20,649 bases of DNA, taken from a virus (taxonomy: Duplodnaviria; Heunggongvirae; Uroviricota; Caudoviricetes). A program made the translations under genes and the position numbers. The stretch lies in IMG/VR virus record IMGVR_UViG_2563366912_000001. One strand, written 5' to 3'. The notes beneath the pieces are model-generated. The model made no database searches, was not told the origin of the DNA, and worked only from the letters and a program-made list of their open reading frames with translations. Below are positions 1 through 18,492 of this stretch, piece after piece (position 1 is the first letter of the stretch; each line of letters starts with the position of its first letter).

Positions 1-1188
1 GTGGCACGGACAACACGCCCCCTTACCAACACCGAAGTTCTTCGCGCTAAAGCGTTAGAGAAGGATCTAACTCTGCATGATGGCGATGGCCTTTTCCTGA
101 TAGTGAAAACCAGCGGGAAAAAGCTCTGGCGTTTCCGTTATCAACGTCCAGCGACAAAACAGCGGACAATGATGGGGCTTGGTGCTTTCCCCGCCCTTTC
201 ACTTGCTGACGCCCGAGGGTTAAGAGCGGATTACCTTGCCTTGTTAGCCAACGGAATTGACCCACAAATTCAGGCCGAAGTTGCAGAGGAACAGCAGCAA
301 ATCGCTCTGGACAGTATTTTCTCAATGGTCGCCGCTAACTGGTTCCAGCTCAAAAGTAAAAGCGTTACCCCTGATTACGCAAAAGACATTTGGCGCTCAT
401 TGGAGAAAGATGTATTCCCTGCCATCGGTGAGATCCCCGTTCAGCAAATTAAAGCCCGAATATTAGTTGAAGCATTGGAACCAATCAAAGCTCGTGGAGC
501 GCTTGAGACTGTACGTCGACTAGTGCAGCGTATTAACGAGATAATGATTTATGCCGTAAACACTGGTCTGATTGATGCCAATCCAGCATCAGGTATTGGA
601 ATGGCCTTTGAGAAGCCCAAAAAACAAAACATGCCGACGCTGCGGCCAGAAGAATTGCCGAAGCTGATGCGTTCTTTAGTCATGTCAAATCTGTCTGTTC
701 CGACTCGCTGTCTCATTGAATGGCAACTCCTGACGCTCGTGCGCCCTTCTGAGGCCTCTGGTGCCCGTTGGGCAGAGATCGATCTCGATACGAAGCTCTG
801 GACTATTCCAGCCGAACGGATGAAAGCTAAGCGGGAACACATTGTTCCTTTATCACCACAGGCATTAGAGATTCTGGATGTAATGAAGCCAATTAGCGCT
901 CACCGAGAACATGTTTTTCCCAGCAGGAATGATCCTAAACAACCTATGAATAGCCAAACTGCTAATGCTGCTCTTAAAAGGATTGGTTATGGCGGTAAAC
1001 TCGTTGCTCATGGGCTTCGTTCTATAGCTAGCACAGCGTTGAACGAGTCTGGTTTTAATTCCGATATTATAGAATCAGCTTTAGCGCATATAGATAAAAA
1101 TGAAGTACGGCGGGCGTATAATCGTTCTATTTATTTAGAACAACGCAGAGAATTGATGTCATGGTGGGGTATAAAAGTAAAATCATAG
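1..1188 (+). CDS. int: P4/CP4-57-family tyrosine integrase; GTG start at window position 1, so the true start may lie at or just upstream of the window edge
   Basis: 395-codon ORF. N-terminus MARTTRPLTNTE...DGDGLFLIVKTSGKKLWRFRYQRP matches the N-terminal arm of P4-type integrases. C-terminal region has H-x-x-R (VAHGLRS) and a Tyr-containing tail (RAYNRSIYLEQRRELMSWW). Confidence 0.9.
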   Translation: MARTTRPLTNTEVLRAKALEKDLTLHDGDGLFLIVKTSGKKLWRFRYQRPATKQRTMMGLGAFPALSLADARGLRADYLALLANGIDPQIQAEVAEEQQQIALDSIFSMVAANWFQLKSKSVTPDYAKDIWRSLEKDVFPAIGEIPVQQIKARILVEALEPIKARGALETVRRLVQRINEIMIYAVNTGLIDANPASGIGMAFEKPKKQNMPTLRPEELPKLMRSLVMSNLSVPTRCLIEWQLLTLVRPSEASGARWAEIDLDTKLWTIPAERMKAKREHIVPLSPQALEILDVMKPISAHREHVFPSRNDPKQPMNSQTANAALKRIGYGGKLVAHGLRSIASTALNESGFNSDIIESALAHIDKNEVRRAYNRSIYLEQRRELMSWWGIKVKS

Positions 1189-1204
1189 GGCTTTCGCCCT
1201 ATGA
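1183..1204. terminator. 9-bp stem / 4-nt loop hairpin between convergent int and the 99-codon ORF; candidate bidirectional terminator
   Basis: tcatagggc-tttc-gccctatga overlapping the int TAG stop, followed by T-rich sequence. Confidence 0.4.
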
Positions 1205-1212
1205 TTTAATAA

Positions 1213-1512
1213 TTATAAAGTTTCCAATGCGAAATTTCGATATCTCATTAGTGCATAAATATATCTAGTAGTAGATGCAGGTGTCCATGTTCTCTCAAGT
1301 TCTTTTGCTAGTGCTGCCCCCATCATTTTCTTATCATCATCGCCAAATTTATTTACATAAGCATTTAATATTTTGATAGCTGGAGATTCAGTGACTAACC
1401 TAGCTAAAGCCCTTTCAAGGCTGATGCTTTCTAATATAACTTCTATTTTATTATTTATCACCACACCATCATCTTGTCGAGAACAAAAACCTAAAGAAAT
1501 TAAATCCTGCAC
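1213..1512 (-). CDS. Hypothetical small protein (99 aa), downstream partner of the nuclease-NTPase gene
   Basis: Open frame in AT-rich DNA where stops are frequent; GTG start at 1510-1512 overlaps the 3' end of the upstream ORF by 13 nt (stop 1500-1502), same strand, suggesting co-transcription. No recognisable motif. Confidence 0.4.
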   Translation of the reverse strand: MQDLISLGFCSRQDDGVVINNKIEVILESISLERALARLVTESPAIKILNAYVNKFGDDDKKMMGAALAKELERTWTPASTTRYIYALMRYRNFALETL

Positions 1513-3446
1513 TGCATTCCTATGTTTATTCGCCTGAATGAATGGCTCATTTTTTTATTGGCGCACAGATACTCGGCAACTTCGAGTGTTTTTTCTGGCG
1601 AAGTAGCAGCTAAGAAAAGTGATCCTCTTCTATTGCGTGCCCCTCTTTTATCTAGATCAATCGCCCCAAATGCTGGGGAAAACAACTCGCCATCATATAT
1701 AACCACAGATTTCCCGATAACCGCTATCAGCCCCGTAAATTGTAACCAAGCCAATAATTTTGAACTATAAGACTTAGGATAACCACCGTCTTTATTCTTA
1801 TAAGTATGGGCTATTATAGATTCATACTTATCGATAGGAACTCTTCTTAAATCGGCATCAACAATATTCTCTGCCAATTCTAACAAAACACTATGACTCT
1901 TAAAATGCTCACGAAGAAACTCAGGGACATTTGTGATAGTCTGTTTACAAACTATATTCCCATTTAAATCTCTGTCTATGAGAACAAAATACTGCAAATC
2001 CATTAAAACATTTATTAATGTTCCCCGACTATATTTTAGTTTAGTTTGCAGTTCATCCAAGCTAATGGTTTTGAACGAGTTTACAACATCAAGAATTAAC
2101 AAAACCATTTTCGGAGATGTTGATGGCATATATGACCATGGTATAACTGGAAGGTCATTTCCTTTCAAGTAATCTCGAAAAACGTCCCAATACACTGATA
2201 ATTTTTCACCTGTTTTAATTACCATCCTATCTGAAATTAGCTCTAAAACAGTATCACTCCCAAACTCTTTAGTAACTTCATATTGACTAATCGGAGAGTT
2301 CTTTGCCACAAATTTTAAACATGAATTTTGTTTTTCAGGCCTATCTAAATCCTCATGAAATAAATTTGAGATCTGTAGTTGACTAACCAACATTTGATCC
2401 TGTGAGATACCTCCTTTTAGTTTTTTGAATACATGAATACAAAGCTTTTTCAATAACCATGGATAACCTTGAGCTTGCTGAATAAGACGCGTGCGTAAAG
2501 GTTTATTTAATTTAAACCCTGTATTTAGCTCGAAACTATTAATTAATTTAGATGAATCTTTTAGATCAAAAGGCTCAAGTTTCTTTTCAACCCTATAATC
2601 TTTTAGCCGATTCCACATTGAGTACGCTGGATTTTCATCCCCTAAAGTAATACCAGTTCTCCATGAGAACCCTACAACTAAATTGCTTTGTAGTGCCGAG
2701 ACATCGAGTGCGAATCGTTCAAATTCTTTAAATAGCCCGAATAGTTCCTCTTTCATAAAGACTTCTTCGAACTGATCAAAGAAAATAGTCAATACCTTAT
2801 CATGTTCGGAAAGGTATTTTAAACATTCCTGAACACTCTCAGATCCTATGATATCCGTAACACTCTCAATCAGGAATGGTTTTTCATATTCGATAAAACC
2901 TTCTTTGATCGCACTGCTGAAAGCTTTAACGACAGCTTCTGCCACAAAACGTCCGCCTCTAGCAGAACGGACATCGACTGGTGTAAGGAAGAATTTATTC
3001 TTCCATTTTTGATTTTTAAATCTTGAGGATAGCCTTGCTATTAAAGATGACTTTCCATTTCCTGAACCGCCTATAAGTGATAGGACTCTACTTTGAGAGC
3101 TATTTCCTCTAACATTCTCAAGATAATCCCAAACTTCTTTCTGTATATATTCGCGACCAACAAAGTCTTTCGGCTGACATGGCTTATAATCCATAAAATC
3201 GTCAGCAAGAATTATTTCACTGACAATTTCCCTTTCGTAATTTTCAGATAATTTTGAAGACGAAACAGTTTGTTCCGGTTCAGATAATATATAAAAATCA
3301 GTTACTTCCAACCCTTCAAAAAGCCCTTGCTCCTTTATAATATCACTTATGCGACTGACACTTGGAATTTTACTATTTTTATTTATAGCGAACGGCACCA
3401 CTCTTATAGGGCTACCATTTTCAACTTCTTGCAAAAGCCAAGTCAT
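1500..3446 (-). CDS. P-loop NTPase fragment (C-terminal ~80% of the interrupted gene; AAA+/STAND-like, family unassigned)
   Basis: 648-codon ORF. Walker A GGSGNGKS (LSLIGGSGNGKSSLIARL) and Walker B-like hhhhD (LTIFFDQFEEVF) about 90 aa later. Frame stays open upstream of the listed Met through 3447-3598 to the IS1 boundary. AT-rich. Confidence 0.7.
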   Translation of the reverse strand: MTWLLQEVENGSPIRVVPFAINKNSKIPSVSRISDIIKEQGLFEGLEVTDFYILSEPEQTVSSSKLSENYEREIVSEIILADDFMDYKPCQPKDFVGREYIQKEVWDYLENVRGNSSQSRVLSLIGGSGNGKSSLIARLSSRFKNQKWKNKFFLTPVDVRSARGGRFVAEAVVKAFSSAIKEGFIEYEKPFLIESVTDIIGSESVQECLKYLSEHDKVLTIFFDQFEEVFMKEELFGLFKEFERFALDVSALQSNLVVGFSWRTGITLGDENPAYSMWNRLKDYRVEKKLEPFDLKDSSKLINSFELNTGFKLNKPLRTRLIQQAQGYPWLLKKLCIHVFKKLKGGISQDQMLVSQLQISNLFHEDLDRPEKQNSCLKFVAKNSPISQYEVTKEFGSDTVLELISDRMVIKTGEKLSVYWDVFRDYLKGNDLPVIPWSYMPSTSPKMVLLILDVVNSFKTISLDELQTKLKYSRGTLINVLMDLQYFVLIDRDLNGNIVCKQTITNVPEFLREHFKSHSVLLELAENIVDADLRRVPIDKYESIIAHTYKNKDGGYPKSYSSKLLAWLQFTGLIAVIGKSVVIYDGELFSPAFGAIDLDKRGARNRRGSLFLAATSPEKTLEVAEYLCANKKMSHSFRRINIGMQCRI

Positions 3447-3589
3447 TTCTATTTCAGGATGAACTAAAAGTGTTGCACTAGTATATTTTGCCGGAATGTC
3501 ATCTGTTGGAATATCCTCAACCTTACCTGTTGCAAGTATAGATATAAGAATCTCTTTTTTATCAAAAAAAGAATAATCTATACGCTCAT

Positions 3590-3598
3590 CAAGTCTAT
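3590..3598. repeat. IS1 target-site duplication, left copy (caagtctat)
   Basis: Identical 9-mer immediately outside both IS1 ends. Confidence 0.9.
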
Positions 3599-3653
3599 GG
3601 TGATGCTGCCAACTTACTGATTTAGTGTATGATGGTGTTTTTGAGGTGCTCCA

Positions 3654-3929
3654 GTGGCTTCTGTTTCTATCAGCTGTCCCTCCTGTTCAGCTACTGACGG
3701 GGTGGTGCGTAACGGCAAAAGCACCGCCGGACATCAGCGCTATCTCTGCTCTCACTGCCGTAAAACATGGCAACTGCAGTTCACTTACACCGCTTCTCAA
3801 CCCGGTACGCACCAGAAAATCATTGATATGGCCATGAATGGCGTTGGATGCCGGGCAACTGCCCGCATTATGGGCGTTGGCCTCAACACGATTTTACGTC
3901 ACTTAAAAAACTCAGGCCGCAGTCGGTAA
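3654..3929 (+). CDS. insA: IS1 InsA (91 aa)
   Basis: Translation [43 protein letters not shown]... is the IS1 InsA zinc-finger/HTH protein. Confidence 0.95.
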
Positions 3930-4351
3930 CCTCGCGCATACAGCCGGGCAGTGACGTCATCGTCTGCGCGGAAATGGACGAACAGTGGGGCTATGTCGGG
4001 GCTAAATCGCGCCAGCGCTGGCTGTTTTACGCGTATGACAGTCTCCGGAAGACGGTTGTTGCGCACGTATTCGGTGAACGCACTATGGCGACGCTGGGGC
4101 GTCTTATGAGCCTGCTGTCACCCTTTGACGTGGTGATATGGATGACGGATGGCTGGCCGCTGTATGAATCCCGCCTGAAGGGAAAGCTGCACGTAATCAG
4201 CAAGCGATATACGCAGCGAATTGAGCGGCATAACCTGAATCTGAGGCAGCACCTGGCACGGCTGGGACGGAAGTCGCTGTCGTTTTCAAAATCGGTGGAG
4301 CTGCATGACAAAGTCATCGGGCATTATCTGAACATAAAACACTATCAATAA
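3848..4351 (+). CDS. insB: IS1 InsB frame (expressed as InsAB' transposase by -1 frameshift)
   Basis: 167-aa ORF ...[54 protein letters not shown]... overlapping insA in the -1 frame. Confidence 0.9.
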
Positions 4352-4361
4352 GTTGGAGTCA

Positions 4362-4727
4362 TTACCCAAGTCTATAATCCTCAAGCGTTGACTGAGCATC
4401 TTTACCCAAATCAGAAATTGAAAAAAGTGCAATTTTTTTAACTCTCAACCTAAATGCTTGAGAAAATGCCAAATCAACCACAGATGAATCAACTTTTTGC
4501 TGCATGAATTTACATTCTACATACAGCTTTTCATTTGATGGTGTATGAGTAGCCTGAATATCAATTTCCATGCCAGATTTTCTGACTTCCATACCATCAA
4601 TTCTATACGATTGCCGGCGGAGTATATCAGCGCAAAAATTCTCGAAAAACTTCCCTCTCGAGGTATTGGAATAATTACTAGGTACACAAACTATCAAATC
4701 TTTATTCAGTGGTAACGGCCTGGCCAT
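4362..4727 (-). CDS. Mrr-type PD-(D/E)xK restriction-endonuclease-like domain; N-terminal fragment of the interrupted nuclease-NTPase gene
   Basis: Motif GKFFENF...ADIL...SGMEIDIQA...KLYVECKF fits the Mrr catalytic core (D ... E-x-K). AGGAG RBS 7 nt upstream of ATG at 4727. ORF ends in a stop created by the IS1 terminus. Confidence 0.65.
   Translation of the reverse strand: MARPLPLNKDLIVCVPSNYSNTSRGKFFENFCADILRRQSYRIDGMEVRKSGMEIDIQATHTPSNEKLYVECKFMQQKVDSSVVDLAFSQAFRLRVKKIALFSISDLGKDAQSTLEDYRLG
4367..4375. repeat. IS1 target-site duplication, right copy (caagtctat)
   Basis: Identical 9-mer immediately outside both IS1 ends. Confidence 0.9.
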
Positions 4728-4847
4728 TTATACACTCCTTATCTCATATCCTTTTGACAAGTAAGATATCAACCTCGAGTTTCAGAAACCAGTATCTTGC
4801 GCATATTTACGACATCAAAACTTTTGGTTATGCACCCACAGCGCGCA

Positions 4848-4866
4848 GTGCTTTCCCCGCCTCGCC
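4848..4866 (-). other. cos site (19-nt cohesive-end sequence of P2/P4 type)
   Basis: Reverse complement of 4841-4866 is GGCGAGGCGGGGAAAGCACTGCGCGC, matching the P2/P4 cohesive end and adjacent bases as I recall them. Position between the cargo and psu matches the P4 map. Confidence 0.75.
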
Positions 4867-4969
4867 CGCCCGCTTTGCGGGGCGGTTTTAATGCAGTTGC
4901 ACTGACACGCTCAGACCGCGCCGGGAATGGTGCGGTCTGCAGAAAATGAGGCAGGAAAACGCATGCAAA

Positions 4970-5000
4970 GCCATGCACCTTATCGATGCATGGCTTTTTT
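4970..5000. terminator. Hairpin plus T6 just beyond the psu stop; candidate bidirectional terminator
   Basis: gccatgca-(9 nt)-tgcatggc followed by tttttt on the + strand and preceded by an A-run as seen from the minus strand. Confidence 0.4.
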
Positions 5001-5030: not shown

Positions 5031-5603
5031 TTACACAGACTGACGTGATGCCAGTTGCGCACTTTTACGCGAAAAAATCATGTTCTGCGCAGGGGTGAAT
5101 TTTTCACGGCTGTCATCCACCGAAGCCGCGTCAGGCCTGAATCCGATGGTCGTTAAAATGTCACTATCCTGTGCGGAATAATTAATTTTTTCCCCCTTCG
5201 CAAGCCAGGACAGAAGGGCTTCACGCAGGGCATCTGTGGCACGCTGTATGGCACAGTTTCGGGCAATGGCCGTCAGCTCACTGTAGCCCATCAGCTCCGG
5301 TGCCAGTGCCGCCGCCAGTGCTGTGCCGTGCTGCTGCATAAAATCATTCAGCCGGTCGCGGATGCTGATGTGCTGAACGGCTTCATGCGAACGAATATAA
5401 CGACCGGCGGCCTGATTCACCTGCCATTTTCTGACTTCGATAATATTGCGTAATTCGTCCAGGCGACTGACGTTTCTGCCTTCTCCTGACTGAATCCGCA
5501 GATATTCCTGTTCGGCCGCAGCCAGCTCATTTTTGCGTTGCAGCCATGCTGCTTTGTTATTCTGACAGGTGTCAAAGGCCTGCTGTAAGGCTGTGCTTTC
5601 CAT
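5031..5603 (-). CDS. psu: P4 Psu-like polarity suppression protein (190 aa)
   Basis: Length matches P4 Psu (190 aa); last gene of the sid-delta-psu late operon arrangement. Confidence 0.85.
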   Translation of the reverse strand: MESTALQQAFDTCQNNKAAWLQRKNELAAAEQEYLRIQSGEGRNVSRLDELRNIIEVRKWQVNQAAGRYIRSHEAVQHISIRDRLNDFMQQHGTALAAALAPELMGYSELTAIARNCAIQRATDALREALLSWLAKGEKINYSAQDSDILTTIGFRPDAASVDDSREKFTPAQNMIFSRKSAQLASRQSV

Positions 5604-5676: not shown

Positions 5677-6177
5677 TCATTCCAGACGCAGCGAATATGA
5701 TTGTGTTTTTAACCGTACTGGCGGCAGTTCCTGTTTTTCATGCAGACTTTCTGCAAGCTCGTCCGGCGTGACCGGGCGGACAATGAAGCGGTTGATGGTC
5801 TGAAGCGTTTTAAACACCAGACCACAGCCCGGATCCGTGCACACATAAAAACGCTCGGTGACTTCCTGAGACAGACGCCGCGATGTTCTTGACAGCGCAA
5901 GGCCTTTACATCTCCGACAACAATATCCGGTAACAAGCATTCTTTTCGGGCGCTTCATGCTGCCGGAGGCTGACGTCAGTGAATCGCGGTATCTCTGTTT
6001 GCCTGAAATGTATTCCATTCCTGAATCTTTACAGTCAGAGAAAAAGCTTTCACTCGCTTCAAATGTCGCAGAGCAATAAATATTCCGGCACTGTGCAATC
6101 ATTATCTTGGTGCCATCGTCCATGAAATGTGCGCGACGGGTGTGAGCAACATGTCCACACGACGGGCAGTAAATCAT
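5677..6177 (-). CDS. delta: P4 Delta-like late transcription activator (tandem Ogr-type zinc fingers, 166 aa)
   Basis: Two Ogr-like modules: CPSCGHVAHTRRAH...C..IYCSATFEASES and YCCRRCKG...VCTDPGCGLVFKT. Length equals P4 Delta. Start overlaps the sid stop. Confidence 0.9.
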   Translation of the reverse strand: MIYCPSCGHVAHTRRAHFMDDGTKIMIAQCRNIYCSATFEASESFFSDCKDSGMEYISGKQRYRDSLTSASGSMKRPKRMLVTGYCCRRCKGLALSRTSRRLSQEVTERFYVCTDPGCGLVFKTLQTINRFIVRPVTPDELAESLHEKQELPPVRLKTQSYSLRLE

Positions 6178-9498: not shown

Positions 9499-11343
9499 AG
9501 GAGAACAACACCATGAAAATGAACGTAACCGCCACCGTCAGCCATGCGCTCGGCCACTGGCCGCGTATTCTCCCGGCGCTGGGGATTCAGGTGCTGAAGA
9601 ACCGTCATCAGCCCTGTCCGGTCTGTGGCGGGAGTGACCGCTTCCGTTTTGATGACAGGGAGGGGCGTGGCACCTGGTACTGCAATCAGTGTGGTGCCGG
9701 TGACGGCCTGAAACTGGTTGAAAAGGTGTTTGGTGTTTCCCCGTCCGACGCGGCCGCAAAGGTGGCTGCCGTGACCGGCTGCCTGCCCCCGGCTGACCCG
9801 GCAGTGACGGCCGCCGCCGGTGCTGAAACAGAAGCCGCCCGGAAGAACGCCGCCGCACTGGCACAAACCCTGATGGCAAAAACCCGTCCCGGAACCGGTA
9901 ACGCCTACCTGACCCGCAAGGGCTTTCCCGGCCGGGAATGCCGGATGCTGACCGGCACACACAGAGCCGGTGGCGTGAGCTGGCGCGCCGGTGACCTTGT
10001 GGTGCCACTGTATGACGACAGCGGCGAACTGGTTAACCTTCAGTTAATCAGTGCTGACGGCCGTAAGCGCACCCTGAAAGGCGGACAGGTCAGGGGCACC
10101 TGTCACACCCTTGAAGGACAGAATCAGGCAGGAAAACGTCTGTGGATAGCGGAGGGATACGCGACCGCACTTACCGTGCATCACCTGACCGGTGAAACGG
10201 TGATGGTGGCGCTTTCTTCCGTGAACCTCCTTTCTCTGGCCAGCCTTGCCCGACAGAAGTATCCGGCCTGTCAGATTGTCCTTGCCGCAGACCGTGACCT
10301 CAGCGGTGACGGCCAGACAAAAGCCGCCGCAGCCGCAGATGCGTGTGAGGGCGTTGTTGCCCTGCCGCCGGTCTTCGGTGACTGGAATGATGCCTTCACG
10401 CAGTACGGCGGGGAGGCCACCCGTAAGGCCATTTACGATGCCATCCGGCCACCGGCTGAAAGCCCGTTCGACACCATGAGCGAAGCGGAGTTTTCCGCCA
10501 TGAGTACCAGCGAAAAGGCCATGCGTATCTATGAGCATTACGGCGAGGCGCTCGCGGTTGATGCCAACGGCCAGCTTCTGTCCCGCTATGAAAATGGTGT
10601 CTGGAAGGTGCTGCCACCACAGGACTTTGCCCGGGATGTGGCCGGGCTGTTTCAGCGTCTGCGCGCGCCGTTCTCCTCCGGGAAGGTGGCCTCCGTGGTG
10701 GACACCCTGAAGCTGATTATTCCGCAGCAGGAAGCCCCCTCCCGCCGCCTGATTGGCTTTCGTAACGGCGTGCTCGACACGCAGAACGGCACGTTCCACC
10801 CGCACAGTCCGTCACACTGGATGCGCACCCTGTGCGATGTGGATTTCACCCCGCCGGTGGACGGTGAAACACTGGAGACCCACGCCCCCGCGTTCTGGCG
10901 CTGGCTTGACCGTGCCGCCGGTGGCCGTGCGGAAAAACGCGACGTGATTCTGGCCGCACTGTTTATGGTGCTGGCAAACCGCTACGACTGGCAGCTCTTT
11001 CTGGAGGTGACCGGTCCCGGCGGCAGCGGCAAAAGTATCATGGCCGAAATAGCCACCCTGCTGGCTGGTGAGGATAACGCCACGTCGGCCACCATCGAGA
11101 CGCTGGAATCCCCGCGTGAACGTGCCGCGTTAACTGGCTTCTCACTGATACGCCTGCCGGACCAGGAAAAATGGAGCGGCGACGGAGCCGGACTCAAGGC
11201 CATCACCGGCGGCGATGCGGTGTCCGTTGACCCGAAATACCGGGATGCGTACTCCACGTGCGTATTACCGTGAAGGAGATCGGTGAGTAACATCGATGGA
11301 GATCGGTTCGTGTCACTTTCACAGAACCGTTTTTAAATTACCT

Positions 11344-12093
11344 TCACTGATCTCCTTCGGTCAACGGAGATTGTATTTTCCGCATTGATTCTCCTTTAAG
11401 TTCGATCTTGATACTGCCATGAACCAGTCGATCTAGGATGGCATCCGCATGTGTGGAGTCTCCGATCATTTTGTACCAGTTTTCCACCGGCAACTGGCTC
11501 ACTACGATGATTGAGCCTCGTTGGTACATCAGATCCACTATTTCCAGCAGGTCGCTACGCTGTTCTGATGAGAGAGGTTCCAGCCCCCAGTCATCCAGAA
11601 GCAGCAGATCGCTATTATTCAGCCTGGTCAAAAGTTTGCTGTATCTTCCATCAGCATGCCCCTGATAGCACTGTTCCATCAGCGCTTTAAGGCGATAATA
11701 GTAGACCTTGTATCCCTGTCGGCAGGCATTATGACCAAGTGCACATGCCAGGAACGTTTTACCGCTGCCGGTGGCCCCGGTCAGTAAAATATTTTGTTTC
11801 AGGGTTAACCAGTTTCCCTGACTGAGTGAACGGATGAGGGCCCTGTCCAGCCCTCTATTGTTACGATAATCCAGCTTTGATAACTCAGCATTAAGTCTGA
11901 ACCGTGCATGTTTGATCAGACGCTCTGCCTTCCTGTTTTCACGGCAGGTTAGTTCTTCTGCTGTCAGTAATGACAGGCGTTCTTCGAAGCCCAGCTCCTG
12001 GTATGTGCCCGGCTGAGCAAGTTGCTTTTTAAGCGCATCACGGAAGCCGGTGAGTTTAAGTGCGGTCAGTTGTTCGTAAAGATGATTCATCAT
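11344..12093 (-). CDS. istB: IS21-family IstB helper ATPase (249 aa)
   Basis: Walker A LLTGATGSGKTFLACALG and Walker B LLLLDDWG; gene follows istA with an 11-nt gap. Confidence 0.9.
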   Translation of the reverse strand: MMNHLYEQLTALKLTGFRDALKKQLAQPGTYQELGFEERLSLLTAEELTCRENRKAERLIKHARFRLNAELSKLDYRNNRGLDRALIRSLSQGNWLTLKQNILLTGATGSGKTFLACALGHNACRQGYKVYYYRLKALMEQCYQGHADGRYSKLLTRLNNSDLLLLDDWGLEPLSSEQRSDLLEIVDLMYQRGSIIVVSQLPVENWYKMIGDSTHADAILDRLVHGSIKIELKGESMRKIQSPLTEGDQ

Positions 12094-12104
12094 TGGATCC
12101 CGTA

Positions 12105-13646
12105 TCAGTGGTAATACTCACTGCCGCGTACGTTTTCGTGTTCCATCGTGGATAACAGATCTGGTTTTGGATCCTGAACAGGTTGTTTATCCAGACCTTT
12201 TTCCAGGATCGATTTAATACCTGACAGACGCCATACCTTTGTTTTCAGAGCTCTTGCACATGCTGCATTAAGTCTGGCTTTACTGTATTTTTTATGAAGG
12301 TTCAGGAGTCCAAGGCAGAAGCGATAGCTTTGTTCCGGATGTGGACGAGAGTTCAGTATATGAAGCACATAACTATGAGTTTCACTGCCTATGTGCCCCG
12401 CCCATTCCAGAAGACGCTCTGGCGTCCAGGTGGCATGCTGTCGATGAGCTTCAGGCATGTGCTCGTTGCGGGTACTGTAGCCATAAGTACGCTTGCGCGG
12501 GTGCACAGCAACCTCCTGCCCCTGATTGAAGAGTCTTACCAGTTCTCCGGAGATCCATGCTTCCAGTTGCTGGCCTAACAGCGAACATGGAACCGAGTAG
12601 TAATGTTTGTCGATTTCCACGTGGTAATCGGCATGAACTCTGACTTTCTTCACCAGGGTGTAACTGTAACTGGCTTCAGGAAGAGGCTTCAGTGCGGGTT
12701 TATCAAGCTGGATGAAGAGTTCTGCACGTGAATAACCCAACTTCTGCATTATTTTGTTATTCAGTCTTTCCAGCAACTCCCGAATGCGCTGATTAAGCGA
12801 TGCAAGGCTGTAGAAGATCTCATGCCTGATTCGGGCCATGATCCAGCGTTCAACAACCTGAACGCCAACTTCAGCTTTGGCTTTATCTTTCGGTTTACGT
12901 GGCCGCGCAGGCAAAACTGCGACATTATAATGCTCAAGCATCTGCTGGTAGGTAGGGTTAACGTCAGGATCATACTTACATGCCCTGGATGTGGCGCTTT
13001 TCAGATTGTCCGGAACAACAAGTTCAGGAACGCCACCCAACCACTGGAAGCAGCGAACATGACTCATCACCCAGTCTTCAAGATGCTGAGACCAGGTGGC
13101 CTCTGCCCATGTGTAACTTGATGCCCCGAGAACAGCTACGATGACCTGAGCAGTTCTTATTTCTCCGGTCTCAGGGTCGGTAACGCCAACGGTAGGTCCA
13201 CAGTAATCAACGAAAAGTTTTTCGCCAGCTTTATGTACCTGACGCATTGATGGTGAAGTGGTTTTGAGCCATTCACGGTACATCCGGCAGTAATGGTTAT
13301 AGCTGTAAAAACCGCCTGGATTACGCTCACAGTATTCTTCCCAGAGTAGCTGCAGCGTCACGCATTTATTACGCAGTTCCCGGTGTACTGTAGCCCAGTC
13401 AGGCAGAGAGTGCTTCTTCATCTTAACCTGGGTCTGAAGGAACGCATGTTTTAGTTTTGTATCATCCCATCCTGTAGGTAAGGGCCACTGCTTTATGCCA
13501 AGTTGAGCCGCCCGATTAGCATATCTGGATACAACGGAAGGGGAGATTGCAAGACTACGACCAATTTGTCGATGGCTGAGTCCAACACCGTATTTAAGCC
13601 TAAGAATTTCTTTAAGTTTTCTCATAGAAATTGGAACTGTTGGCAT
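12105..13646 (-). CDS. istA: IS21-family IstA transposase (513 aa)
   Basis: N-terminal HTH (LSHRQIGRSLAISPSVVSRY) followed by an integrase-core-like region; AAGGA RBS; paired with istB. Confidence 0.9.
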   Translation of the reverse strand: MPTVPISMRKLKEILRLKYGVGLSHRQIGRSLAISPSVVSRYANRAAQLGIKQWPLPTGWDDTKLKHAFLQTQVKMKKHSLPDWATVHRELRNKCVTLQLLWEEYCERNPGGFYSYNHYCRMYREWLKTTSPSMRQVHKAGEKLFVDYCGPTVGVTDPETGEIRTAQVIVAVLGASSYTWAEATWSQHLEDWVMSHVRCFQWLGGVPELVVPDNLKSATSRACKYDPDVNPTYQQMLEHYNVAVLPARPRKPKDKAKAEVGVQVVERWIMARIRHEIFYSLASLNQRIRELLERLNNKIMQKLGYSRAELFIQLDKPALKPLPEASYSYTLVKKVRVHADYHVEIDKHYYSVPCSLLGQQLEAWISGELVRLFNQGQEVAVHPRKRTYGYSTRNEHMPEAHRQHATWTPERLLEWAGHIGSETHSYVLHILNSRPHPEQSYRFCLGLLNLHKKYSKARLNAACARALKTKVWRLSGIKSILEKGLDKQPVQDPKPDLLSTMEHENVRGSEYYH

Positions 13647-14450
13647 AGGTATCCTTTACCGGAATGGCAAAAGATACAGATCAACACACCTGTGAAGTTC
13701 CAATAACATTGATGGAGATCACTGAATAACAAAATGAGTCAAAAGTGATCTCCATCGATGTTATTCAGCGATCTGTTCAAATGTTATTACCCGATCTCGA
13801 TGGAAGTTATTGAGTGATCTCCTTTCATGAAAATACGCACTCCACGCACATCCCGGCGGTAATTCTGGCCGTGAACAATAACCCGATGCGCTTCACCGAC
13901 CGCAGCGGCGGCGTGTCACGCCGGCGGGTGATTATTCACTTCCCGGAACAGATAGCCCCGCAGGAGCGCGACCCGCAGCTTAAGGACAAAATCACCCGCG
14001 AGCTGGCGGTCATCGTGCGTCACCTGATGCAGAAGTTCAGCGACCCGATGCTCGCCCGGTCACTGCTTCAGTCCCAGCAGAACTCAGACGAGGCACTGAA
14101 CATCAAACGGGATGCCGACCCGACGTTTGATTTTATCGGCTATCTGGAAACCCTGCCGCAGACCAGCGGCATGTATATGGGGAACGCCAGTATCATCCCG
14201 CGTAATTACCGTAAATACCTCTATCACGCCTATCTGGCCTACATGGAGGCAAACGGCTACCGGAATGTACTCAGTCTGAAAATGTTCGGGCTGGGGCTGC
14301 CGGTGATGCTGAAGGAATACGGACTGAATTACGAGAAGCGCCATACCAAACAGGGGATACAGACCAACCTGACGCTGAAAGAGGAAAGCTACGGCGACTG
14401 GCTGCCAAAATGTGACGACCCTGCAACAACCTGACCATCATGACTCATCT

Positions 14451-15107: not shown

Positions 15108-18100
15108 TCAGAACGACCAGTTCACACCAGCTACCCCGTTCCACGGGGATTCCACACCGGCACCATGGCTATACCCCACCCCAAGATGCCCGCTTAACGT
15201 ACTGCTGAATGAGGCTTTAATACCTGCCTGGTATATTCCACGTCTGCCCGACAAATCATTGACGAAATTACCGTCACTATTCACTTTCACCCGGTTATCA
15301 TCGACAAATTCTTTGCGCACAGCCGCCTTCAGCCACGGCTCAACTTCCATACCGTTCCCCAGACGCATGTTGTAACTCAGCGTTGCACCCAGTTCACGAT
15401 ATAAACTGCGGGTATCGACTGATTTCGATTCCATGCCATTGGATAAATGATATTCAGGGTTATCAGCGGTGAACCCCCGTTAACGATGCATACGGCGTCA
15501 GGTTCCAGTTACCATCGGTAAATCGCATCCCGGTTTCAATGTGACCGCCCAGCCCGTAGCTGCGATAACTGCCGTTGGCGGCTCCACCGCTGCCAACCGT
15601 GGAGTCGCGAGCTTCGGTACCTGCTAATACCAATAAATTACCGCCATTTTCCAGCAACATATTGGTCGCTAAATTGCCGGAAATGGAAAAAGTGCCGTAC
15701 TGGTGAGTACCGCTGATTTCAATACCGTTAGCCGTGCTCGTCTGGAGAGCGGCACCGCTGTTCTGGACGATATCTGTCGCTTTGCCATTATCGTTAACTG
15801 TCAGCGTACCGCCTTCATTGATCTTTGTTTTTATTGCCTCTCCGTTAGCTGAAACTGTTTGTATTCCGCCGTCGTTAATCGTTGTCTCATTCGCCACCCC
15901 CTCGACGATTTGTTCGCCGCCGGTGAGCGTCGTGCCTGTCGCAGTGGCTTTTGTTTTGACGATCTCCCGTCCGCCCGTATTGACCTGTGTTTTGTCAGAA
16001 GAGGTGTCTGACTCCACGGTTAACACGCCGCCATTTGCCAGCAGGATATTGTTCGCCGCACCCTGCTCGATGCTGAACGCGACGCCATCCGCGCGTGTTC
16101 CTGTGACCCGCGTCGCCCTGGTGGTTGCAACCAAAGCGCCCTGGCTACTCTGCTGTATCCCCGTTGCGCTGCCTTTCTCCCGCACATCGAGTGTGCCGCC
16201 GTCATTAAGCACCGAGTTTTCAGCCAGACCGCCCTCATTAACTACCTGTGAACACCCATTAATAATGGAACCTTCCGCTATCCCGTTTGCCATAATTTGT
16301 TGTAGGCCAGAGACGATATCGGTATTGATCGCCTTACCATAATTCTGAACGGTTTGTGTGCCGCCATTGATGTGCGTTTTGTCAGTTGACCCACCATCAA
16401 CAATTTGTTCACCACTTTCAATATTTGCCTCAGTGGCTAAACCATATACCGTTTGCTTGCCACCTTTGATATTTGCTTTATCAGAAGTGGCACTGGCATA
16501 TATTGTTTGGGTGCCAGCACTATTAAGTACAGTGCCAACATCTTTTCCATAAACATCCATTTTGCCGTTGGCATTAATAATCGTATCAACTGCCCGGGAA
16601 CCAGTGACGACTGTTAATGAGCCAGCGTTTTCCAGCACTACATTTTTAGCTTCTGAATTCCTGATGTAGAAAGCATCACCATAACTGTTGGTTCCTTCGA
16701 TAAGGGTTCCGGAAGTTGTGGAAGCAATTAATGCGCCGCCGGATTGTTGCTCAACATGCTTAGCCTCACCACCGTCCTGAACCTCCAGAACGCCACCATT
16801 ATTAAGTCTGGTGGTATCTGTTTTAGCCTCCTTCTGGACAATCAGCTTACCGCCAGCATCAACGGTAGTATTTTTCGCCGAGGTTTTAGCCACTACCGTC
16901 AGTTCGCCGGTATTTTCCAGCACAACATAATTAGCCTCCCCTCCGGTAATAGTGAAGTGAGAGAGCTTGTTGTATCCTTCAATATCAGTCCCTGCGCCCG
17001 TGTTGGCAACTAAAGCACTGCCCGTCTCCTGGTTAACCCCATGTGCAATACCGCCGGTATAGACAATCAGCGAGCCTCCGGCGCTAATATTGCTGCCAAT
17101 TGCCGTACCATCTTTCTCAACAACTTGCTGGCTCCCGGAGGATATAATTGTTGTGTCAGCTTTCCCACCGCTTTTGATATTTTGCGTTCCGCTGTTGATA
17201 TTGGTGCCTGTGGCTATGCCATAATTATTAAGATTCTGTGTGCCACCATTAATTATGGTATTTGTCGCGTTTCCTGCAACATCCATAACCCCGCCATTAT
17301 CTATTCGGGTCGCATCAGCTTTAGCATTCGTTAAAACTGACATTGTTCCTTTATCTTTAATAATCGTCTTGTTTGCGGAATGAGATACTTCTAAATGGCC
17401 TCCATTTTCCAGCAACACATTGTCTTCCACTTTATTGTGGATGGAGAATGCACCTTCACTATTCGTACCGCTCACCGTCGTACCGTTAGTGTTTGTTTTT
17501 AAAATTGCACCATCGTGCTGGGTAACATTTGTTGCCGTACCACCACTAACATCAAGCACGCCACCGGAATAAACTTCAATAACATCCGAGGTGCTGGTGT
17601 TATCAACAATTTGCGTGCCACCAGAATAGATCTGCGTAATTTTTGCCGTTGACTTACTATTCAGAGACTGAGTTCCGCCTTCAATCGTCGTGTCCAGCGC
17701 ACGGCTCTCATATACTCTTTGCTCACCGCCATTTTTAATGGTTGTTGTTTCTACTGTGCTCTGTTCAACATACTGTCGACCACCATTTATGGTTGTGTTC
17801 GTTGCCAGACTTCCTTGTACTACGTCCTGAGAGCCAGACTTATTTATCGTTGTACCATCAGCATGCCCTTGAACTTTTACTATCTGGCTACCACCATCAA
17901 TGAGTATTCCATTCGCACTCCCTCCCTCTACGCGTGAAGCACCGCCCTTAATTGTCGTTCCATTGCTGATACCCCCTTTATAAACGTCCTGATTGCCACT
18001 CTCGATTGTCGTACCTGTGGAAATACCCCCGTCATGAATTGACTGTCTGCCACCGTTAATGGTTGTATTATTAGCCTGCCCCACAAAATTGTTATGACTT

Positions 18101-18492
18101 CCTATATCTTGATATCCACCAGATTCAATAAGACTTCCATTAGATACCCCGCCATGAACATTCTGCTGGCCATGGTTGATAATATGAGTGTTATTTGTTG
18201 TACCTCGTTCATCCACTTTTTGGTTGCCATCTACAGTCTCATCGTTTACCACACCAATAACATCAGGAGTGAAGGCCGCCATACCGGGCGGGGCATATAT
18301 CAAGGCAGATATCAATAAGGAAAGTACTGAGCGGCGACAATAATGGGGACTGGTCCTGTTCATAAATTTCATCCTCTGAAAAGTGAATACTGAGTAGCGT
18401 TTAAGCGACCTTAGCTCTGCTGCAACATCAGCCCACAGGCACCAGACCAGGGGATTCATCCTGAAGAGACAGCGCAAGTGTATTGTGTTCAC
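15108..18492 (-). pseudogene. AIDA-I-type autotransporter adhesin, disrupted: passenger ORF (15463-18492, probable start near 18363-18372) and beta-domain C-terminal ORF (15108-15434) in different frames
   Basis: Extended signal peptide MKFMNRTSPHYCRRSVLSLLISALIYAPPGMAA. About 900 aa of degenerate beta-helix repeats (TTINGG.Q..). C-terminus ...LGVGYSHGAGVESPWNGVAGVNWSF is a beta-barrel terminal strand. Frames separate at a C5/G5 tract (15474-15478). Translocator portion looks too short for a 12-strand barrel. Confidence 0.75.

Follow-up and report, generated by a model that had tools for sequence, protein, structure and literature searches.

A doubly inactivated pseudogene of a candidate Mrr-STAND immune sensor in the int-psu cargo site of a P4-like satellite

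What does the AT-rich segment between the integrase gene and psu of a P4-like satellite encode, and can it still act? The question is raised by the viral record IMGVR_UViG_2563366912_000001 (Caudoviricetes; 20,649 nucleotides, the whole of which is called the window here), in which an initial annotation had read positions 1213-4727 as a minus-strand two-gene unit, consisting of a nuclease-NTPase of about 816 codons interrupted by IS1 and an overlapping partner gene of 99 codons. Instead, this segment is one doubly inactivated pseudogene, broken by IS1 at codon 120 and by the loss of 4 bp after codon 806. In its intact form the gene encodes a protein of 913 amino acids (aa) that is probably a single-protein, NLR-like (STAND) immune sensor with an Avs-like mechanism, carried as int-psu cargo of the satellite. 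The candidate system is dead in the window strain.

One gene with two inactivating lesions

The proposed disruption by IS1 is confirmed; the element is 768 bp long and is flanked by exact 9-bp repeats (Table 1). Removal of IS1 and one repeat copy yields an 816-codon minus-strand open reading frame (ORF) that starts at 4727, with the ATG at 4725-4727 and an AAGGAG ribosome-binding site at 4735-4740. The long frame of the initial annotation is thus restored in the window, but the true product has 913 aa, and the 816-codon figure arises because the 4-bp deletion shifts the frame into an early stop. In a base-by-base alignment the window differs from the intact copies in two respects only, the IS1 insertion and the loss of one CATT unit. 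Past F806 the shifted frame reads 10 missense codons and then TAA (1500-1502), while the 107 codons beyond the frameshift sit in another frame, in which a GTG-initiated ORF of 99 codons arises. The deletion is a case of repeat slippage and falls within winged helix 4, the last winged-helix domain of the protein. Phase variation at (CATT)n was considered and deemed unlikely, as there are three units only and all 53 full-length copies from complete E. coli genomes match (CATT)3 without any change in length.

These genomes provide the reference for the intact gene. The locus occurs in 54 of 5426 complete E. coli genomes at an identity of at least 99.8%, always chromosomal and in single copy. All but one of the 54 carry an uninterrupted coding sequence of 2742 bp for the 913-aa protein WP_000113630.1, 99.96-100% identical, and IS1 is present in none of these 53. 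RefSeq labels this single coding sequence either "restriction endonuclease" or "nSTAND1 domain-containing NTPase", and it is sited between a P4-like int and psu. A search found 536 homologues; the matches listed extend down to 28% identity and are mostly 890-946 aa long, and those of this length cover 97-100% of the 913-aa query. The part of the protein that had been read as a separate gene holds the invariant or near-invariant residues R812, N813, L818, L821, W890, S894 and R897 (conservation here and below refers to 57 aligned homologues).

A system of two genes, with an 816-aa nuclease-NTPase and a 99-aa partner protein from an overlapping gene, agrees with the fact that both ORFs exist and overlap in the window, and it has a real counterpart in Avs8 (PD-lambda-4), which pairs an Mrr-NTPase with a small partner. 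The split, however, is caused by a deletion peculiar to the window copy; all 53 full-length E. coli copies and the homologues of about 900 aa have a single ORF that spans both parts, and the break interrupts a folded winged-helix domain. The 99-aa ORF alone has no family match in Pfam, PADLOC or NCBIfam, and no neighbouring gene is common to the nine full-length homologue contexts examined. The terminator-like hairpin after the true stop (1180-1207) also agrees with a single gene. We therefore rejected the two-gene cassette on the alignment to intact copies and on the length and coverage of the homologues, and consider its probability close to nil. The supposed partner gene (1213-1512) is the out-of-frame C-terminus of the 913-aa protein; its sequence is conserved, yet as a part of that same protein, and with this the claim of a two-gene unit falls.

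The exact protein is already catalogued as a candidate anti-phage gene of P4-like satellites. Table S1A of Rousset et al. (2022, Cell Host Microbe, PMC9122126) lists WP_000113630, and system #13 of the P4 hotspot in their Table S1B is described there as AAA_35/Mrr_cat, an NLR-like protein encoded by a single gene between psu and int, at 97 loci. The rebuilt window sequence (start MARPLPLNKDLIV) is identical to the Table S1B representative of that system over the 400 residues compared. The main text of PMC9122126 also mentions hotspot STAND proteins with Mrr_cat effectors. Compared with system #13, which is a catalogue entry without a name or a mechanism, the window copy is a pseudogene that carries IS1 and the 4-bp deletion. 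The same protein, WP_000113630.1, is seed #134 in a survey of defence-associated STANDs (Lee et al. 2026, doi 10.64898/2026.01.04.697583 v2), where its NTPase is delimited at residues 264-516. A full-text literature search for the accession WP_000113630 returned no paper.

Two ORFs are left in the window after the IS1 insertion. One, of 121 codons (4362-4727, minus strand), encodes the Mrr nuclease domain by itself and keeps the native ribosome-binding site, and the other, of 648 codons (1500-3446, minus strand), has an internal Met start and spans the NTPase and most of the sensor. Other broken or divided members of the family were also seen. In A. baumannii (contig L014, 5270-7959) two neighbouring ORFs divide the protein at the linker, one for the Mrr and beta domains (216 aa) and one for the NTPase and sensor (652 aa). 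The larger product occurs on 6 contigs, and the locus may be a pseudogene (nonsense or frameshift) or a natural two-chain variant. A pair of 656 aa and 313 aa (contig L013, 1664-6942) was rejected as a natural split version, as an IS21-family insertion lies between the halves.

Architecture and sensor region of the intact protein

An AlphaFold2 model of the 913-aa protein, built from the 57 homologues, has a mean predicted local distance difference test score (pLDDT) of 84.5, and its domains are collected in Table 1. The initial annotation had recognised an Mrr-type nuclease at the N-terminus and a P-loop NTPase in the centre, and both assignments hold. Pfam Mrr_cat (PF04471) matches residues 24-117 with 32.1 bits (cut-off 21), and the nuclease residues E54, D56 and E71-C-K73 are invariant. 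Pfam nSTAND1 matches residues 255-402 with 32.3 bits (cut-off 27.1), and Walker A (S296-G-x-G-K-S-S) and Walker B (F391-D-Q-F-E-E) are likewise invariant. The same is true of G427-F-x-W, followed by R/K431, and of G495-x-P-W-x-L-K-K...H506 in the helical domain. The hallmarks of a STAND protein are therefore present, namely a P-loop nucleotide-binding domain (NBD), a helical domain and a winged helix, with Walker A, an acidic Walker B and a GxP-type motif. So is the tripartite layout of Avs proteins, with an N-terminal effector (Mrr_cat), nSTAND1 and a divergent C-terminal module of 300 aa.

The initial annotation saw apparently no repeat sensor domain in the protein, which is not borne out. 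Judged from its sequence, the C-terminal stretch of about 300 aa is an internal duplication of a predicted winged-helix plus helical unit. Unit A (606-765) aligns with unit B (780-913) over 125 columns with an hhalign probability of 97% (E 1e-10), and winged helix 2 aligns with winged helix 4 with a probability of 94%. The model of the C-terminal region has a pLDDT of 86.6 and a predicted template modelling score of 0.81, and the only matches found for this region are to single winged helices. A large helical-repeat sensor of the TPR-like kind was not found in the 913-aa protein. The sensor is its most divergent region, with a mean identity to the query of about 29% versus 57% for the NBD.

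The winged helices raise a different explanation, in which the protein would be an NTP-dependent, restriction-like DNA sensor whose winged-helix array binds foreign or modified DNA and whose ATP-driven assembly activates Mrr, with no phage protein being recognised. The winged-helix domain of E. coli Mrr offers a parallel for direct DNA binding, type IV enzymes have Mrr_cat as their catalytic domain, and one of the RefSeq names is "restriction endonuclease". The sensor is mildly basic (net charge +5, isoelectric point about 9), and the NTPase module is as close to the DNA-bound initiators Cdc6/Orc1 as it is to NLRs. Conserved positions of the recognition helices, however, read N-x3-D-L and are not basic, the NTPase is an nSTAND1 member with STAND hallmarks, and a methyltransferase or specificity partner is absent from all homologue contexts examined. 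The layout of E. coli Mrr and type IV enzymes is only partly comparable: both contain the catalytic PD-ExK domain Mrr_cat and winged helices, whereas Mrr has a single winged helix at its N-terminus and lacks an NTPase, and the 913-aa protein has an N-terminal nuclease, an inserted STAND NTPase and four winged-helix domains after it. On this evidence we regard a restriction-like DNA sensor as unlikely, and an immune sensor of the STAND class as the better description of the protein.

How far the sensor is tied to this architecture was followed by profile searches. A word-indexed search with the sensor profile retrieved 6 fragments only, and an exhaustive search retrieved 400 cluster representatives (E up to 1e-3), nearly all with the layout of 890-945 aa. 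The exhaustive search found no alternative effector on the sensor. Effector swapping was rejected, as the shorter matches are gene fragments or N-truncated copies without Mrr. In a distant homologue (P0186, a 713-aa fragment) two stretches match the sensor profile, and there is apparently a third winged-helix plus helical unit. Because P0186 appears to hold this third unit, the number of sensor repeats may vary in the family.

Table 1. Features of the pseudogene, of the protein encoded by its intact form and of the flanking satellite genes
Feature	Window position (nt)	Strand	Residues	Description and basis
IS1	3599-4366	+		768 bp; imperfect terminal inverted repeats; insA/insB-like ORFs 3654-3929 and 3848-4351; gene broken after codon 120
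Target-site duplication, copy 1	4367-4375			CAAGTCTAT; exact 9-bp direct repeat beside IS1
Target-site duplication, copy 2	3590-3598			CAAGTCTAT; exact 9-bp direct repeat beside IS1
5' gene fragment	4376-4727	-		codons 1-117, most of the Mrr-type PD-ExK domain; GMEIDIQA 4551-4574, YVECKF 4506-4523
Frameshift site	1537-1544	-		(CATT)2, where intact copies have (CATT)3; 4 bp lost after codon 806; alignment with intact locus L001 and three-frame translation
PD-ExK nuclease			1-120	AlphaFold2 model
Acidic beta-rich small domain	3327-3578	-	125-208	AlphaFold2 secondary structure, pLDDT, charge analysis
Acidic linker			211-254	low-confidence, partly disordered; AlphaFold2 pLDDT, charge analysis
P-loop NBD, STAND (nSTAND1)	2571-3188	-	255-460	Walker A GGSGNGKS 3048-3071; Walker B IFFDQFEE 2763-2786
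Helical domain	2151-2564 (with first winged helix, residues 463-600)	-	463-535	AlphaFold2 model and conservation
First winged helix		-	539-597	completes the STAND module
Three further winged-helix-like domains			613-833	AlphaFold2 model
Terminal helical bundle			835-912	AlphaFold2 model
Sensor repeat unit A	1656-2135	-	606-765	winged helix, then helical and winged-helix-like part
Sensor repeat unit B	1216-1613	-	780-913	split by the frameshift in the window; alignment, hhalign, conserved residues
Terminator-like hairpin	1180-1207	-		12-bp stem, then T-rich tract; directly after the true stop 1213-1215, overlaps the 3' end of int; terminator scan
int	1-1188			P4-like integrase; stop 1186-1188; convergent with the STAND gene
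psu	5031-5603			
delta	5677-6177			

Relatives, proposed mechanism and genomic settings

We compared the intact protein with known systems by fold and by sequence. In a Foldseek search against the PDB the top match is a complex of Avs4 with the phage portal (8dgf_B, E 7e-12), followed by archaeal Walker-type ATPases, RuvB and Orc1/Cdc6; the fold matches of the NTPase comprise Avs4, NLRP3, Cdc6/Orc1, MalT and SeAvs3. Neither a single-sequence nor a profile search found a significant sequence relative among solved structures. Avs4 (PDB 8dgf) shares the domain order of the 913-aa protein, with an Mrr-like nuclease at the N-terminus, a STAND NTPase in the middle and a sensor at the C-terminus, and presumably the same logic of oligomerisation leading to nuclease activation. 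It differs in its size of about 1500 aa and in its large TPR-like, portal-binding sensor, which contrasts with the duplicated winged-helix sensor of about 300 aa in the 913-aa protein, and similarity between the two sequences is undetectable by PDB profile search. Avs8 (PD-lambda-4) likewise combines an Mrr nuclease with a P-loop (STAND) NTPase and occurs in E. coli, and it senses a phage protein, the HK97-fold capsid. Compared by description and with PADLOC, Avs8 is a two-gene operon with Avs8B, whereas no partner exists at the 913-aa locus. NLRP3, ZAR1, MalT and Cdc6/Orc1 differ from the 913-aa protein in their effector and sensor domains, and Pfam assigns its NTPase to nSTAND1 rather than to NACHT or NB-ARC.

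Membership in a named defence family was rejected, since PADLOC (query and 10 homologues) and NCBIfam give local matches over short stretches only. The PADLOC-DB 2.0.0 matches lie mostly on the P-loop, with others on the nuclease head and on a winged helix (DndF, PDC-S20 and mad8, E 1e-3 to 1e-6), and the NCBIfam search of the 913-aa protein gave nothing near the cut-offs. The earlier view that the locus fits no named system therefore stands as far as no PADLOC or NCBIfam model claims the protein, but to call it unassigned was an overstatement, as it is a STAND (nSTAND1) protein that has already been catalogued.

By analogy with Avs3, Avs4, Avs7 and Avs8, a likely mechanism would run from ligand binding through ADP-to-ATP exchange and oligomerisation to DNA cutting by Mrr. 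The resting protein would be an ADP-bound, auto-inhibited monomer. Upon infection, the divergent C-terminal module would bind a phage-derived ligand and auto-inhibition would be relieved. Exchange of ADP for ATP would then drive oligomerisation, probably to a tetramer, and the oligomer would cluster the Mrr domains into an active nuclease, which would degrade DNA and abort the infection. As the sensor is not TPR-like, the protein-sensing step in this scheme is an extrapolation.

The genomic settings of the family bear on whether it serves immunity. A Providencia homologue of 29% identity lies between the replication (Toprim) and portal genes of a P2-like prophage, which is where Rousset et al. 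2022 (PMC9122126) place the P2 defence hotspot, close to cos. An Acinetobacter homologue is found inside a prophage near DarA- and DdrB-like genes, and a Photobacterium homologue adjoins IS66 copies and HEPN and RnlA genes. Matches on plasmids number 15, at 31% identity or less. Together, the sites in P4 and P2 hotspots, the prophage homologue, the HEPN/RnlA neighbours and the use of the protein as a seed in the 2026 STAND survey are points in favour of a defence role.

Other observations weigh against an Avs-like immune sensor. PADLOC-DB 2.0.0, which we take to contain models for Avs1-5/AVAST, bNACHT and PD-lambda-4 (= Avs8), gave no Avs, bNACHT or PD-lambda-4 match, either for the query or for 10 diverse homologues. 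Every Avs with a known trigger has a TPR-like sensor, and the sensor of the 913-aa protein is not of that kind. No family match came from phage genome records, and homologues from Serratia and from two metagenomes stand alone as insertions between housekeeping genes, where none of the neighbours is a defence gene. The literature covered, which took in a part of the 2026 list of cloned STANDs, held no experimental test of the protein, and the tested-system tables of Rousset et al. do not contain it.

Such solitary homologues would also suit a protein with no immune function, either a STAND-type regulator like MalT or AfsR, both of which were matched by fold or weakly by sequence, or a selfish module of mobile elements that serves addiction or maintenance. 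The repeated striking of family copies by insertion sequence (IS) elements could be cited as well. The catalytic residues of the nuclease are nevertheless invariant across homologues of 28-81% identity, the family recurs within prophages and at the cos-proximal defence hotspots of P4 and P2, and an operon partner to regulate is absent. We consider a non-immune function very improbable, and retain the immune sensor as the preferred reading.

IS elements were seen at two more members of the family. On contig L015 (2-2526) a copy without the Mrr domain is directly preceded by an IS30-like transposase tail, and on the cyanobacterial plasmid NC_019761 (3108-7144) an ISMic1 element interrupts a family member. 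Recurrent inactivation by IS elements may mean that carrying the gene has a fitness cost.

The surrounding satellite and significance of the family

The initial annotation had placed AT-rich cargo between int and psu, and this is upheld by the coordinates of int, psu and delta and by a GC content of 33-38% at window positions 1001-3500 versus about 50-58% for the psu/delta/sid backbone. Its assignment to the P4 int-psu defence hotspot is also supported, as int and psu flank the cargo in the window and in two further loci, L001 and L002. In the second of these, from E. coli EC1722-1 (1133-4471), the P4-like element adjoins a second integrase, followed by a defence-like pair of an AAA ATPase and an RloB-family protein; since these adjoin the element, the arrangement suggests tandem islands at this site.

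The satellite itself carries further damage. Its alpha primase-helicase gene is split into 9513-11273 and 13814-14434 by an IS21-family (ISEc12-like) element at 11273-13824, which has multi-repeat terminal inverted repeats and, on the minus strand, istB (11344-12093) and istA (12105-13646). Because this element interrupts the primase gene, the whole P4-like element, beyond its cargo gene, is probably defunct. The STAND gene and psu are separated by an ORF of 69 codons (4769-4978; RefSeq hypothetical protein WP_071590453.1). It overlaps a hairpin that is GC-rich and terminator-like (4866-4885) in the expected cos-proximal region, and it may not be a real gene. Farther along the window, a ypjA-type AIDA autotransporter gene (15108-18492, minus strand) looks split into a 1009-aa ORF with the AIDA repeats and a 108-aa ORF with the beta-barrel end, and may be another pseudogene.

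The window locus matters little in itself, being a doubly inactivated copy in a satellite whose primase gene has also been lost to an IS element. Its useful outcome is a corrected annotation, with one gene for a 913-aa protein and no partner. The intact family is a fairly widespread Mrr-STAND candidate with a non-TPR sensor, found in the hotspots of P4-like satellites and of one P2-like phage. In the 2026 survey, sensors were clustered if they had 400 aa or more, and 119 STANDs were cloned (Lee et al. 2026, doi 10.64898/2026.01.04.697583). By the NTPase boundary given there, the sensor of WP_000113630.1 has 913 - 516 = 397 aa, and since this is just below the cut-off the family may have escaped the functional screening of that survey.

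A tentative and rather doubtful extension of these results is that the 913-aa protein represents a family of compact Avs-like proteins, with about 400 clusters at 50% identity, in which the duplicated winged-helix sensor detects some feature of nucleic acids or a small factor from the phage, and not the fold of a large, conserved phage protein; either kind of ligand might be expected because the sensor is a duplicated winged-helix module and not an array of TPR repeats. The identity of the trigger would show if arrays of winged helices can serve STAND immune receptors as sensors, possibly of nucleic acids.

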